Of a stretch of DNA of 4,337 bases, positions 1 to 4,337 are shown piece by piece. The DNA is from a virus. Lineage: Duplodnaviria; Heunggongvirae; Uroviricota; Caudoviricetes. Numbering within the stretch: the stretch's first letter is position 1; each line of letters begins with the position of its first letter. The notes below the pieces were generated by a model that saw only the letters and a program-made list of their open reading frames with translations, did no database searches and was not told the origin of the DNA. The DNA is taken from IMG/VR virus record IMGVR_UViG_2609459830_000011, positions 1-4,337 of that record; one strand, 5' to 3'. Position numbers and translations under genes: made by a program.

Positions 1-309
1 CCCCGGGGGCCCGGTTCCCCCTCCCGGCCCAGCCACACCTGTTTCTCCTTTCGGTCCCTGTGGGCCTGCCGGGCCTGCTGCCCCGGTGTCTCCCTTTGGA
101 CCCTGTGGACCTGTACTTCCTGTCAGCCCGGTCTCTCCCCGCTCTCCCCTGTCGCCTTTCGGCCCCTGCGGACCTGCCGGACCAGCATCACCTGCCGGTC
201 CCCGTTCGCCGGTTGCCCCGACAGGGCCGGTGTCACCGCGCTCTCCCTTATCACCCTTCGGCCCCTGAGGACCCGCGGGCCCCTGTTCCCCCTTTGGCCC
301 GGGAGGTCC
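1..309 (-). repeat. Collagen-like Gly-X-Y coding tract, at least 34 uninterrupted triplets (Stf aa 251-353+), with imperfect ~100-bp-period direct repeats
   Basis: Seen in sequence: translation reads [103 protein letters not shown] with Gly at every third residue. The DNA shows recurring near-identical blocks (plus ~48-77, ~155-183, ~255-285; e.g. cctttcggtccctg / cctttcggcccctg / ccttcggcccctg) encoding repeated GPQGPKG units. The tract continues past the window edge. Confidence 0.85.
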
Positions 310-1059
310 CACCACGGTGGGGATTCGGTTTACGGCCTCTTCCGCCGCTATCCTGCTTTGTTCCGCTGACTGTGCGCTTTCTGCTGACTCCCGGGCTTTT
401 TCTGCTGCGGTCGTTGCATCCCTGGCTGCATTACCGGCTGCACTTTCTGCCGTCTTTTTTGACAACTCAGCATCTGTTGCACTTTGTAATGACTCACTGG
501 CTTTTTGAGCGGCCGCAGAGGCCGAGGACGAGGACGCCTCCTCTGACTGCTTTGCAGCGGCTGCACTTTCTGCCGCCTGCCGGGCTGACTCCGATGCATC
601 CCCTGCTGAAGTGTCAGCATTTGCAGCGCTCTCTTCTGCCTGACTGGCTGATATGCCGGCATTCCTCGCTGACGTCTCCGCCTCTCCGGCATTCTTCTTC
701 GCCTCCTCAGCGTGACGCGCCGCTTCTTCCACCATCAGTTCAAAACGACGCAGTGCCTCCGGCCGGACGTCATCCTCCGACATGGCACCGAGAAAATCAT
801 TCAGCGTCCCCGGTTGAGAATCTTCATACACGGTGATGGTCCCGGCATGTGACGGAGGAAATCCCTCCACCAACAGAATGACGCTGTACTGACCGTACTC
901 AACATCCATGCTGTAACGTCCGGCTTCATCCGGATTTTCAGAGGCCACCGTGTTCACCACCACCGTGCTGCTGGTTCGTCTGGCCTTCAGCACAATGGTG
1001 CAGTTCTGTACTGGTTTTCCTGTGCCATCTTTAAGCACGCCAGAAATTTTTACTGTCAT
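1..1059 (-). CDS. stf: Side tail fibre protein Stf, N-terminal 353 codons (partial; 3' end runs beyond window position 1)
   Basis: Seen in sequence: reverse-complement translation from ATG (plus 1057..1059) is stop-free for 353 codons to position 1, starting [93 protein letters not shown]. This closely matches my recollection of the N-terminus of lambda Stf (orf-401), not verified by alignment. It is followed by an Ala/Ser/Glu-rich segment and then a Gly-X-Y tract. Position directly downstream of lom on the same strand matches lambda gene order. Absent from the ORF track because there is no in-window stop. Confidence 0.85.
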
Positions 1060-1064
1060 ACTTT

Positions 1065-1070
1065 TCCACC
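1065..1070 (-). promoter_or_regulatory. Candidate Shine-Dalgarno for stf (GGTGGA, 5 nt upstream of the ATG)
   Basis: Seen in sequence: minus-strand reads GGTGGA-AAAGT-ATG. Purine-rich but imperfect match to the GGAGG core. Confidence 0.35.
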
Positions 1071-1071
1071 A

Positions 1072-1106
1072 ATAAAAAAAGCCCGCAGCAGTGACGCCAC
1101 GGGCTT
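1072..1106 (-). terminator. Rho-independent terminator downstream of lom (minus-strand orientation)
   Basis: Seen in sequence: minus-strand RNA would read GCCCGUGGCG-UCAC-UGCUGCGGGC, roughly a 10-bp stem including three G-U wobbles, extendable by flanking A/U pairs, followed directly by UUUUUUUAUU (plus 1071..1080 is aataaaaaaa). On the plus strand the A-run precedes the hairpin, so it terminates minus-strand transcription only. Lies ~105 bp downstream of the lom stop and ~15 bp upstream of the stf ATG. Confidence 0.6.
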
Positions 1107-1135
1107 CAGGACAGTGTAACTTTACGTTTCCTCAA

Positions 1136-1170
1136 ACGCAGTTCACCCCATAAGGTGGATGAACCTGCGT
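1136..1170. repeat. Imperfect inverted repeat / potential stem-loop in the lom-stf intergenic region
   Basis: Seen in sequence: plus acgcagttcacc-ccataa-ggtggatgaacctgcgt. Arms acgcag/ctgcgt, ttca/tgaa and cacc/ggtg pair, with small bulges and a 6-nt loop. No function can be assigned from sequence alone. Confidence 0.3.
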
Positions 1171-1210
1171 ATCATAACAATATTTACAGAAGATAAATCG
1201 GCGTCTGTTG

Positions 1211-1810
1211 TCAGAAACGGTATCCGATACCAACAATAAATGCATCCGATCGCCAGTCGCCACTACCGGAACCTTCATAAGCAAGGTCAATGGTCACGGA
1301 TTCGGTCGGGTTAAACTGCACGCCAGCCCCCCACGCCAGAGACGTGTTGCTGTGGCGACCGTCATCACTTCCGGTCAGCACATCGTGCGTTTTCCCCTTG
1401 TTGTCAGTTACGCGGAGATAATCCCCGGAGAAAGTCGACACACGGCTGTAAGCCACACCCGCCATCGCATACGCGCTGAACCATTCATTCACGCGTACAG
1501 ACGGCCCCGCCATCACGCTGAACCAGCGGTTACGCACGGAATCTTCATGCCAGCGGGTATCGCTGTAGCGCGTTTTTTGCTCATCCTCAGCATTGGCATA
1601 ACTGAAGGACGTAATCAGCCCCAGCGCGTCCATAAACTCATAACGGTATTTCACGTTAATCCCGTTCAGATCATCACTACCGGGAACGTTCGTCGAGGCA
1701 TGGAGATACCCCGCGCTCAGCGTGGACTGATGTTCTGCTGCACTCGCTGGCGTAGCAGCGGCGACCTGCCAGACTACTGCGGACAAAATAACAGCACATA
1801 ATTTACGCAT
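1211..1810 (-). CDS. lom: Outer membrane protein Lom (Ail/Lom/PagC family 8-stranded beta-barrel), complete, 199 aa
   Basis: Seen in sequence: complete ORF from ATG (plus 1808..1810) to TGA (1211..1213). N-terminal signal-peptide-like segment MRKLCAVILSAVVWQVAAATPASA followed by AEHQSTLSAGYLHA. Internal motifs NGINVKYRYEF, SVMAGPSVRVNEWFSAYAMAGVAYSRV, AWGAGVQFNP, AYEGSGSGDWRSDAFIVGIGYRF and a C-terminal aromatic residue (F) typical of OMP beta-barrels. Closely matches my recollection of lambda Lom (not verified by alignment). Located between J and stf as in lambda. Confidence 0.92.
   Translation of the reverse strand: MRKLCAVILSAVVWQVAAATPASAAEHQSTLSAGYLHASTNVPGSDDLNGINVKYRYEFMDALGLITSFSYANAEDEQKTRYSDTRWHEDSVRNRWFSVMAGPSVRVNEWFSAYAMAGVAYSRVSTFSGDYLRVTDNKGKTHDVLTGSDDGRHSNTSLAWGAGVQFNPTESVTIDLAYEGSGSGDWRSDAFIVGIGYRF
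1739..1810 (-). other. Predicted Sec signal peptide of Lom (aa 1-24, cleavage likely after ASA)
   Basis: Seen in sequence: basic N-terminus (MRK), hydrophobic core (LCAVILSAVVWQVAAA), then ASA|AE consistent with an AxA signal peptidase I site. The exact cleavage position is an inference. Confidence 0.55.
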
Positions 1811-1815
1811 AATTA

Positions 1816-1821
1816 CCTCTC
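1816..1821 (-). promoter_or_regulatory. Shine-Dalgarno for lom (GAGAGG, ~5 nt upstream of the ATG)
   Basis: Seen in sequence: minus-strand reads AAGCGAGAGGTAATT-ATG. Confidence 0.5.
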
Positions 1822-1834
1822 GCTTTTCTGCAAT

Positions 1835-1858
1835 AAAAAAGGCGCCATTTCTGGCGCC
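1835..1858 (-). terminator. Rho-independent terminator between J and lom (minus-strand orientation)
   Basis: Seen in sequence: minus-strand RNA would read GGCGCCA-GAAA-UGGCGCC, a perfect 7-bp GC-rich stem with a GNRA-type tetraloop, followed by UUUUUUAUUG. Lies ~20 bp downstream of the J stop. On the plus strand the A-run is upstream of the hairpin, so it is not a plus-strand terminator. Confidence 0.65.
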
Positions 1859-1877
1859 CGTATCTGGGTTATAAAAT

Positions 1878-4337
1878 TCAGCTGATACTGATACCTGCTG
1901 TGGATTTTTTCATCACCACAACCAGCAGATCGCTGATACTGGTTGTTGGTGTCCAGTTATTCGCTCCTGATGAAGATACGGTGAATGTCAGTGTCAGCGT
2001 CCCCTGTCCGGCAGGCATATCTATAACTGAAGAAAATACGCCCTGAGCATCCGTCGTGGACTGATTAAAAATCTCCTGACCATTGCGGGTCACTCTTAAC
2101 CGGCAGGTTGAATACCAGTATGACTGTTGGTTATTACTGTTGAAATTCTCATGCTTACCACCGCGGAATAACACTGGCGGTATCATGACCTGCCGGTCAA
2201 ACTTCTGATCATCACTGATTCTTACCGTGATGGTGCCACTGGCATAAGTGCTCGTGCGGGGGAAAGACTTGCTGACCGTTTTGACAATATCGCCTTCAAT
2301 CTGGTTGGCTGACAGTTTCCCCTTAATCTGACAGTTCTCATTAATCGTGACGTTGTTGAGCGTCCCTGAGTTCGCATTCACACTGCCACTGATATCCGCA
2401 TTTTTCGCCGTCAGTCGCCCGTCCGGCGTCAGGGAAAACGTCGGGGGGTTGCCGGATGACGTGATACTCACCGCAAACAGTCGTTTCAGGAACACGTCGT
2501 TCATGAACAGCTGATTCCCCTGCGCCACAAATAACGGCGTGCTGTTGCCGCTCTCCGGATTTATCATCGCGATACGGTCAGCCAGCAGCAGTATGTTGCT
2601 CAGTGGCTGGCCATCAGTATCCTCAATCCCTGCACCAATCCCGGCCACATAGGGAATGCCGTCTTTCGTTTTTTGAACCTTCAGCATGTACAGCGCAGCC
2701 AGGTCATCATTTGTGTCCTTCTGCACGCGCTGTATCTGCTGTATGGTGGCGCTCTGGTTCTCCAGTGTTTTGTTGACCGTCTGTGTGATTTCATTGCGGG
2801 TTTCCGTGATGCTGGTCTTCATCTCCGCCATCTCATCTGCAAGCTGGCTGTTATCTATCAGTTCCCACAACCCCTGAGCCAGATGCAGTTTTCCTATTTT
2901 TTCCCGGAAAAATTCCAGATACCCTTCACCATCATTGCTGGGCTGCCCGCTGACTTCCACAAACGCAGATTTCCCCACCAGGTTGACGCTGCGCACGTAA
3001 AACCAGAAATCCTTCCCGGGCTTAATGTGCGGGCCGGATACACTCCACTGACTGCCGGTCCCCAGATAACGGGCAGAGGTTTCCACCTGAGATGTGTCTG
3101 CGATTTTTGCCTCCGAAAACCAGAATTCAAACTGTACCGTCGGGTCATATACAGCCAGTTTCGGGACCGCCGTTATCTGAAAATAGCCCGGTGTCAGCTC
3201 AATCTGTGACGGCGCTGCCGGTGCGGCAATCCGGAACGATACCGACGCCGGATCGCCCTGCTGCCCCCACGCATTTACCGCCCGGACTGTCAGCCTGTAG
3301 CTCCCCGGCGCCAGTTGCGTGAAGCGGTATGTGGTTTCCGTCGTCCGGGCCGTGCTGACCAGCCGCTCACTGCCGTCATCCGCGGCCACGGTCAGGCGAA
3401 GCATAAAGCTCACGCCCTTCACCACCTTCGGCGTGTCCCATTTCGCCTGTGCCAGATACTGACCGTCAGCTGCGCTCACCTCCACCGTCAGGTGCTGCAC
3501 TGCCGGAGGGATGACGCTGTTCAGGGTGCCTGACTGCGGCTCAAAGCTGGCCCCGTTATCCACGATGGCTTCCTTTTCCGGTACGTGCTGCACCGCCGTG
3601 ATGGCAAAGGTACCGTCCGTGTTTTCCCGGATGGAAACACAGCGGAACAGGCGACGACGCAGTGACGGCAGGGAGAGTCCCCATACACCGTATGTCTCCA
3701 CACCATCAGGCAGGGTGCTGACCTGTATCCGGTCCGGCGCGGGGTGTGCAGTGATGGCCACGCTCACCGGCTTACCGCTGCCGTTAATCAGGTTCACCGT
3801 GGCGGCACCGGTCTCCGGCAGGGTCACCTCACGGTCCAGCGTCAGGGTGCGGCTGGCGGCATCGATGGACAGGACACGTCCGCCGGTCATGGTCCCGGCA
3901 TAGTCGTTATCACAGATTTCAATAATGTCACCGGGTGTGTGACGCAGCCCCTGTGACCCGAGCGTGAAATCCACCGTCTGCGTTTCCAGCAGTCCGGTCT
4001 TTATCACCCACAGCCCGGCACGGTGGGCCTGACCGCGACTGGTGCAACCGAACGCATCCATCTTCAGCAGGTTGCGCCCGTAGCGCAGTATGGCTTCCGG
4101 GTCTTCCACCAGTTCCGTGGAGGTCTGCCAGCCGTTCTGCGGGTCGGTGTAATTCACCTCCACCGCCGTGTGGCGGTCCTTCAGGGCGCTGAAGCTGTAG
4201 CGAAACCCCACGCCGTTATCATCCACCACCACATCGCTGTTGGTGTACGGCCACACCACATCCGACTGGCGGTCCTGAACGAACGTCAGCGTCTGGCCGT
4301 TCCATACCGGCATACAGCGCATCGCCGAGCAGAAATC
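1878..4337 (-). CDS. J: Tail tip / host-specificity protein J (central tail fibre), C-terminal ~819 codons (partial; 5' end lies beyond window position 4337)
   Basis: Seen in sequence: the minus-strand frame is open from the window edge (4337) to TGA at 1878..1880. The first in-frame codons read [23 protein letters not shown], so the Met at 4322 is internal. Landmarks matching my recollection of lambda J (not verified by alignment): [51 protein letters not shown], fibronectin-III-like segment [86 protein letters not shown]. Ends GISIS. Confidence 0.93.

Follow-up and report, generated by a model that had tools for sequence, protein, structure and literature searches.

We analyzed a stretch of 4,337 nucleotides from the IMG/VR virus record IMGVR_UViG_2609459830_000011 (Caudoviricetes; positions 1 to 4,337), hereafter called the window, with a focus on the outer membrane protein gene lom and the two hairpins on either side of it. 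All genes considered here lie on the minus strand, where the order from 5' to 3' is the 3' part of J, a 67-nt spacer, lom, a 151-nt spacer and the 5' part of stf. The DNA is 96% identical to that of Escherichia phage phi330 and of Stx2a-converting phages, in which the corresponding genes are annotated as J, Lom and tail fibre. As no genome among 5426 complete E. coli genomes exceeds 96.6% identity over the whole window, the window represents a lambdoid prophage mosaic and not phage lambda. Very probably, it covers the junction between J, lom and stf in a lambdoid Escherichia prophage that resembles Stx phages. The main features are as follows.

1878..4337, minus strand: 3' part of J, the tail tip or host specificity gene (819 codons, running past the window edge; stop codon at 1878-1880).
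1811..1877, minus strand: J-lom spacer, 67 nt.
1832..1859, minus strand: hairpin 1 with its T tract, GGGCGCCA-GAAA-TGGCGCCT followed by TTTTTATT, of the intrinsic-terminator type.
1816..1821, minus strand: Shine-Dalgarno-like GAGAGG, read from the sequence, 5 nt upstream of the lom ATG.
1211..1810, minus strand: lom, complete, 199 aa, with an ATG start.
1060..1210, minus strand: lom-stf spacer, 151 nt.
1068..1107, minus strand: hairpin 2 with its T tract, GAAGCCCGTGGC-GTCACT-GCTGCGGGCTTT followed by TTTTATTGGT, a strong element of the intrinsic-terminator type.
1..1059, minus strand: 5' part of stf, a side tail fibre gene (stf / orf-401 homologue; first 353 codons, running past the window edge).

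Hairpin 1 starts 18 nt past the J stop codon. The consensus scan places its stem at 1859..1840, with 8 pairs (6 of them G-C) and a loop of 4, followed by TTTTTTATT, and the predicted RNA fold has an energy of -15.7 kcal/mol (z -3.45). Hairpin 2, located 103 nt past the lom stop codon, has a stem of 13 pairs (7 of them G-C) at 1107..1078 in the same scan, followed by TTTTATT, and a predicted fold of -20.5 kcal/mol (z -3.35). Seven consecutive T are present at 1080..1074, three of which are paired within the stem, and the element ends 8 nt ahead of the stf start codon.

A lax terminator scan of the window was not enriched overall (6 sites found versus 3.8 ± 1.9 expected), with the two hairpins ranking first. 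Therefore, a strict scan was run (stem of at least 8 pairs, at least 6 G-C pairs, and at least 6 T in the next 8 bases). The only sites that it identified on either strand were hairpins 1 and 2, both on the coding strand, whereas 300 dinucleotide shuffles gave no site in 299 cases and one site in a single case. A first-pass annotation of the window had described lom as a complete open reading frame (ORF) bracketed by two terminator-type hairpins inside the tail gene cluster, at coordinates that proved right to within 1 nt for lom and both hairpins. That description holds, as the hairpins are conserved (see below), have stable predicted folds and exceed chance expectation. Both are thus non-random, conserved elements of the intrinsic (Rho-independent) terminator type, for which we infer termination activity.

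To assess conservation, we compared approximately 165 loci with lom, taken from GTDB genomes and IMG/VR, together with that of lambda. Hairpin 1 occurs in practically all of these loci, always followed by T4-6 ATT and, approximately 20 nt further on, by the ribosome-binding site and ATG. The stem itself varies (GGGCGCC/GGCGCC, GGGCGTC/GACGCC, GGGCACC/GGTGCC and GGCACCTC/GAGGTGCC; CGTCCG/CGGGCG in lambda). Across 22 distinct spacers, 92.6% of the alignment cells are paired, compared with 37-60% when the partner is slid by 1-3 columns. Double substitutions occur at three of the eight pairs (GC<->AU in 7 sequences, CG<->UA in 6 and AU<->UA in 2, in addition to one UG), and none of 500 shuffles reached the observed covariation score. 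As read from this alignment, the covariation shows selection on the pairing and not merely on the sequence. The core AGAGG of the lom Shine-Dalgarno sequence and the T that follows it are invariant in all 22 distinct spacers, with the first G replaced by A in three. In one locus (L155), the loop of hairpin 1 is inverted (AGAAAT to ATTTCT) with an unchanged stem, which fits an inversion or a template switch across the palindrome. A sigma-54-like TGGCGC...TTGC, noticed by eye in hairpin 1 and its T tract, was discarded on account of its wrong spacing.

Hairpin 2 is likewise conserved among its variants, but the changes are confined to the loop and are therefore uninformative on compensatory pairing. 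Two unrelated versions of the element occupy this position, one in a short lambda-type and one in the long window-type spacer. The short spacer, of 64 nt, carries AGCCCGCC-loop-GGCGGGCT, followed by T6, and a hairpin that differs in sequence from that of the window is thus found at the same place in lambda and phi330.

The product of lom matches the Pfam family Ail_Lom (PF06316) over its entire length (score of 409.7 bits, cut-off 23; E 2.5e-123; protein residues and profile positions both 1-199), and also matches the OMP_b-brl domain. In a BLASTP comparison it is 41% identical to lambda Lom (NP_040601; E 5e-55). A search of sequences in the PDB gave lambda Lom as the best match (9wso, E 7e-46), followed by OmpX (E 1e-18) and Yersinia Ail (3qra, E 9e-18), over residues 26-199. 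The first-pass assignment of the gene to the Ail/Lom family of outer membrane proteins is confirmed by these alignments, as the full-length family match is accompanied by significant similarity to lambda Lom and, with E values near 1e-18, to OmpX and Ail. Inspection of the translation by eye suggests a signal peptide of approximately residues 1-24 (1810..1739), with MRK and a hydrophobic core ahead of ...TPASA|AEHQ, and a C-terminus ...GYRF that ends in an aromatic residue, as is typical for outer membrane barrels. On this basis Lom, as a member of the Ail/Lom/OmpX family, is predicted to be secreted and to form an eight-stranded barrel in the outer membrane, with the barrel fold taken from homology. 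Ail of Yersinia, OmpX, PagC and Rck are small outer membrane barrels of eight strands, and mature Lom is homologous to OmpX and Ail, but its loops are longer (199 aa in total versus approximately 150-170 aa). A single-sequence AlphaFold2 model was too poor for use (predicted local distance difference test score of 36.7). The structure of lambda Lom has been solved (PDB 9wso, an entry with two chains in which Lom is chain C). For the window allele, a putative part in adhesion, in resistance to serum or in survival within macrophages would derive from literature on lambda Lom (Vica Pacheco, 1997, as cited in PMC3594210).

The first-pass annotation had further read the gene in the light of lambda lom. 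The family is right, but the allele is that of Stx-type and enteropathogenic/enterohaemorrhagic E. coli (EPEC/EHEC) prophages, 41% identical to the lambda protein; it belongs with the Lom of Stx-converting and EPEC/EHEC lambdoid prophages such as phi330, Stx2a_WGPS8 and E2348/69 PP6 (E2348C_1438). For annotation purposes, the window lom should therefore be recorded as the Stx/EPEC-type allele, and not as that of lambda. The protein is 99% identical in Escherichia albertii and 100% identical in one IMG/VR contig. A 197-aa ORF that runs antisense to lom at nearly the same coordinates (1208-1801, plus strand) is unsupported and most likely an artefact of the mirror frame.

Comparison with other phages indicates that the content of this position varies. 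In HK97, J is followed by stf without lom, and in the Yersinia phage PY54 another membrane protein gene is found in the slot. Gifsy-1 has the same layout as the window, with J, a hairpin with a T-rich tail (TCTTTCGTTT), a small gene, a hairpin with T6 and stf, and the N-terminus of its stf product is 85% identical to that of the window. Its cargo differs, however, as it is an unrelated 80-aa ORF and not lom. This ORF (STM2589.1n, at 2205-2447 of locus L182) has a clear signal peptide, and represents an uncharacterised secreted cargo. Phage lambda (18904-19649) shares with the window the J-lom-stf order, the Ail/Lom family, a hairpin and T tract in each spacer, and a similar lom ribosome-binding site (GAGAGGT). 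It differs in the sequence of both hairpins and in the lom-stf spacer, which measures 64 nt in lambda versus 151 nt, with an extra inner hairpin, in the window. Judged by gene content and spacer sequence, the J-stf junction is a variable cargo slot. The arrangement as such is already known, since lom between J and stf, as well as terminator-flanked cargo in lambdoid late operons, has been textbook material since 2000.

Taken as a whole, and including the identity of the window and the terminator type of both hairpins, we have good confidence in the reading of the locus as a J-lom-stf cargo slot delimited by two Rho-independent-type terminators, with late read-through by Q. By analogy with lambda biology, during lytic growth RNA polymerase modified by Q and coming from pR' would ignore both terminators and transcribe J, lom and stf within the late operon. 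Without Q, hairpin 1 would stop stray transcription out of J, and hairpin 2 would keep any transcription that crosses lom out of stf. Q read-through, like any expression from the prophage, is what we infer from this analogy. The first-pass annotation had proposed that the terminators insulate lom while Q-modified transcription reads through them. The two conserved terminator-type hairpins agree with this, but the promoter that was placed within J does not, as set out below.

Several results weigh against this reading, in particular where it would have lom expressed from the prophage as a moron. The word moron was originally applied to HK97 gene 15, and lom is a commonly cited example (PMC3594210); the description of lom as the archetypal moron, given in the first-pass annotation, is thus overstated. 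Morons are defined (Juhala et al. 2000; Cumby et al. 2012 (PMC3594210)) as extra genes at variable sites, with a promoter of their own, their own factor-independent terminator downstream, a deviant GC content and expression from the repressed prophage. The window lom lies at a variable site (HK97 is without lom, Gifsy-1 and PY54 have other genes), and is followed by hairpin 2 as its own predicted factor-independent terminator, behind a weaker hairpin at 1169..1137. Its GC content of 54.7% is not deviant, compared with 56.6% for the J part and 60.9% for the stf part.

With respect to the promoter, no sigma-70-like site of at least 8/12 matches is present within the 400 bp upstream of lom in the window, which includes the J-lom spacer; consensus promoter scans can miss a weak or activator-dependent promoter. 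A relaxed scan of 96 distinct 400-nt upstream sequences, including extended -10 elements, revealed nothing positionally conserved upstream of lom. The last approximately 25 codons of J are conserved, with the variation at wobble positions, which reflects coding constraint and not promoter hexamers. Lambda has a weak TCGTCC-N17-TATAAA that overlaps its hairpin and T tract, of which the window has no equivalent, and neither the GenBank records of lambda (J02459, NC_001416) nor that of HK630 has terminators or promoters annotated around lom. The earlier statement that the 67-bp J-lom spacer lacks a recognisable promoter is thus borne out by standard and relaxed scans alike. The accompanying proposal, of a lom promoter inside the 3' end of J, finds no sequence support, and such a promoter would sit upstream of hairpin 1.

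The geometry of hairpin 1 limits where a promoter could be. Its T tract ends approximately 20 nt ahead of the lom ATG, too close for a promoter to fit in behind the hairpin, and as hairpin 1 directly precedes the lom ribosome-binding site, any lom promoter must overlap or precede it. Transcripts from a promoter in J upstream of hairpin 1 would meet the very terminator that is said to insulate lom, which contradicts the insulation model. As the lom promoter is unmapped even in lambda (PMC2147009), the position of hairpin 1 provides a constraint for promoter mapping.

Published expression data are divided. Lambda lom has been reported to be expressed in lysogens (Chen et al., PMC1151598; PMC7067206), and lom RNA of phi24B was equal in lysogenic and induced cultures (PMC3342100). 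Conversely, lambda lom went undetected in a lysogen in the work of Osterhout et al., who described its promoter as little known (PMC2147009). The locus that is most informative for the window is that of prophage PP6 in EPEC strain E2348/69:

NC_011601, 1470037-1470636: lom of E2348/69 PP6, E2348C_1438 (locus L185).

This locus is 97% identical to the window over 860 nt, with identical hairpins and an identical 151-nt lom-stf spacer, and its J-lom spacer differs from that of the window at one base. In the data of Pearl Mizrahi et al. (PMC8550237 Table S2, DESeq2), lom had a baseMean of 2.0 under activating and 0.34 under non-activating conditions, next to 15 and 6.7 for J, and 7.0 and 5.3 for stf; under non-activating conditions, the values were 432 for ompW and 610 for hns. 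Relative to gene length, lom does not exceed the silent tail genes in these two conditions, although in this RNA sequencing (RNA-seq) experiment reads common to similar prophages may have been discarded. Independent expression of lom in the lysogen had been assumed in the first-pass annotation on the basis of lambda, whereas the near-identical E2348/69 locus is at background; lysogenic expression of this lom allele may be very low or condition-dependent. Some caution is warranted for loci of this type, for which moron status was carried over from lambda: the promoter that would define a moron is not seen, and an essentially identical locus is without expression in the one public dataset that covers it.

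These results bear directly on the possibility that lom is a mere late gene, with hairpins that act as Q-sensitive insulators silencing the tail fibre genes, or as mRNA-stabilising 3'/5' structures after processing. Background-level lom reads in E2348/69, the lack of a promoter upstream of lom and the location of hairpin 1 directly ahead of the lom ribosome-binding site all fit such a scenario, which we regard as possible but on the unlikely side. The presence of lom RNA in lambda and phi24B lysogens argues against it, and the RNA-seq evidence is limited to two culture conditions and subject to the caveat of multi-mapping reads. In addition, lom is intact in two decayed prophages, which hints at selection at the level of the host. 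In locus L150 (1372-1500), an IS4-like transposase has been inserted in the 5' arm of hairpin 1, next to an intact lom ORF. In locus L020 (270-884), a deletion has joined a Nu1-like terminase gene with hairpin 1 at its base, which results in a read-through ORF into an intact lom. These two loci had also raised the idea that hairpin 1 travels with lom as a mobile cassette; this was rejected, as both represent prophage decay.

We consider it unlikely that the spacers serve mainly as recombination linkers for the swapping of lom and tail fibre alleles, with hairpins that are incidental or secondary. The pattern of conservation is what linkers would leave: the spacers are far more conserved than the adjoining genes in a comparison of the window with P-EibA, in which the J-lom spacer is 97-100% identical and the core of the lom-stf spacer (~1179..1071; 1071-1190) 87-100% identical, versus 53-80% for the 3' third of lom and 37-77% for stf. 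Similarly, the short spacer is near-identical between lambda and phi330 despite a Lom identity of ~41-46%. The 3' third of lom, encoding the C-terminus, occurs as two alleles that are each tied to a spacer type (loci L003-L177). The allele ending in ...AFIVGIGYRF is accompanied by the 151-nt spacer in 45 of 45 loci, and the allele ending in ...GFIVGVGYKF by the 64-nt lambda-type spacer; from this perfect linkage a recombination boundary inside lom follows. Nevertheless, the compensatory substitutions in hairpin 1 imply selection on pairing, unrelated hairpin sequences take up these positions in lambda, in Gifsy-1 and in loci of the window type, and a linker role would be compatible with terminator function.

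That lom is a classic autonomous moron, with its own constitutive promoter in the 3' end of J that yields a monocistronic lom transcript between the two terminators in the repressed prophage, appears improbable: the reports on lambda and phi24B lysogens, the terminator-type hairpin downstream of lom and the variable content of the slot speak in its favor, but transcripts from a promoter in J would terminate at hairpin 1 before reaching lom, a candidate promoter is neither present nor conserved, the EPEC locus, near-identical to this one, is silent under two conditions, and lom has no GC anomaly. HK97 gene 15 and lambda bor resemble lom in that they are extra genes in or next to the late operon, with a downstream terminator and a patchy distribution among relatives; they differ in that neither an own promoter, which is a defining trait of morons, nor a deviant GC content is seen for the window lom.

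Next to the reading as a terminator-delimited cargo slot, the long lom-stf spacer has properties of its own. Some 85 additional nt are present in the window between the end of lom and hairpin 2, and two further features were noted there.

1171..1179, minus strand: putative extended -10-like motif TGTTATGAT, read from the sequence.
1137..1169, minus strand: inner hairpin CGCAGGTTCATCC...GGGTGAACTGCG, followed by UUUGAGG (predicted fold of -18.2 kcal/mol, z -3.0).

At the position of the first of these, TGnTATAAT or TGnTATGAT is found in three of four diverged lineages: besides TGTTATGAT in the window, the motif reads TGGTATAAT or TGTTATAAT in two of the other lineages, and it is degraded in the fourth. 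It was not picked up by the two-hexamer promoter scan. The base of the inner hairpin stem is kept across variants, in which only one-sided or wobble changes occur, and the structure may be either a weak first terminator or a 3' untranslated region (3'UTR) structure. A stretch of 41 nt (1136..1096), which extends from the single-stranded linker to within the 5' arm of hairpin 2, shows no change in any variant examined.

Based on this layout, which resembles that of Hfq-binding small RNAs (sRNAs), the spacer core could encode an sRNA of ~90 nt, either as a primary transcript or as a product of the lom 3'UTR, but we consider this very improbable. If true, it would be a new prophage sRNA in about 30% of complete E. 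coli genomes: a 221-nt query covering the lom-stf spacer and its flanks (1040-1260) was found in 1640 of the 5426 complete genomes overall, with 1563 E. coli genome records at an identity of at least 99%, among which the listed matches are 100% identical. A search of Rfam at a permissive threshold gave only three chance matches (E 2-6), driven by the terminator hairpins, which counts against an sRNA. Among the elements listed from RNA interaction by ligation and sequencing (RIL-seq) of E2348/69 in the whole of Table S5 and part of Table S3, none is named after E2348C_1438 or E2348C_1439, so that an RNA from the spacer is without Hfq support. Described prophage sRNAs were considered as counterparts and rejected: PasB sits in the I-J spacer of E2348/69 PP6, HnrS/EcOnc10-12 follow the gene for the Rz-like endopeptidase in Sakai Sp10, and for 24B_1 the region downstream of lom in phi24B has no meaningful similarity. 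The conserved pattern of the spacer could instead mean tandem terminators combined with a recombination linker, with an sRNA as the less probable option.

The genes on either side of the slot are readily recognized as tail genes. The J part matches the Pfam families Phage-tail_3, Ig_J, Ig_J_second, Phage_Tail_Tip and Ig_GpJ_C, and the phages with the best matches have its counterpart labelled J or tail fibre. The stf part contains the prophage tail fibre N-terminal domain (phage_tail_N, PF08400; E 7.4e-69) as well as a Collagen match (E 6.8e-15). The latter reflects collagen-like G-X-Y repeats (window 1-310, minus strand) in a stretch of 71% G+C, which are preceded by an Ala/Glu/Ser-rich segment that probably forms a coiled coil.

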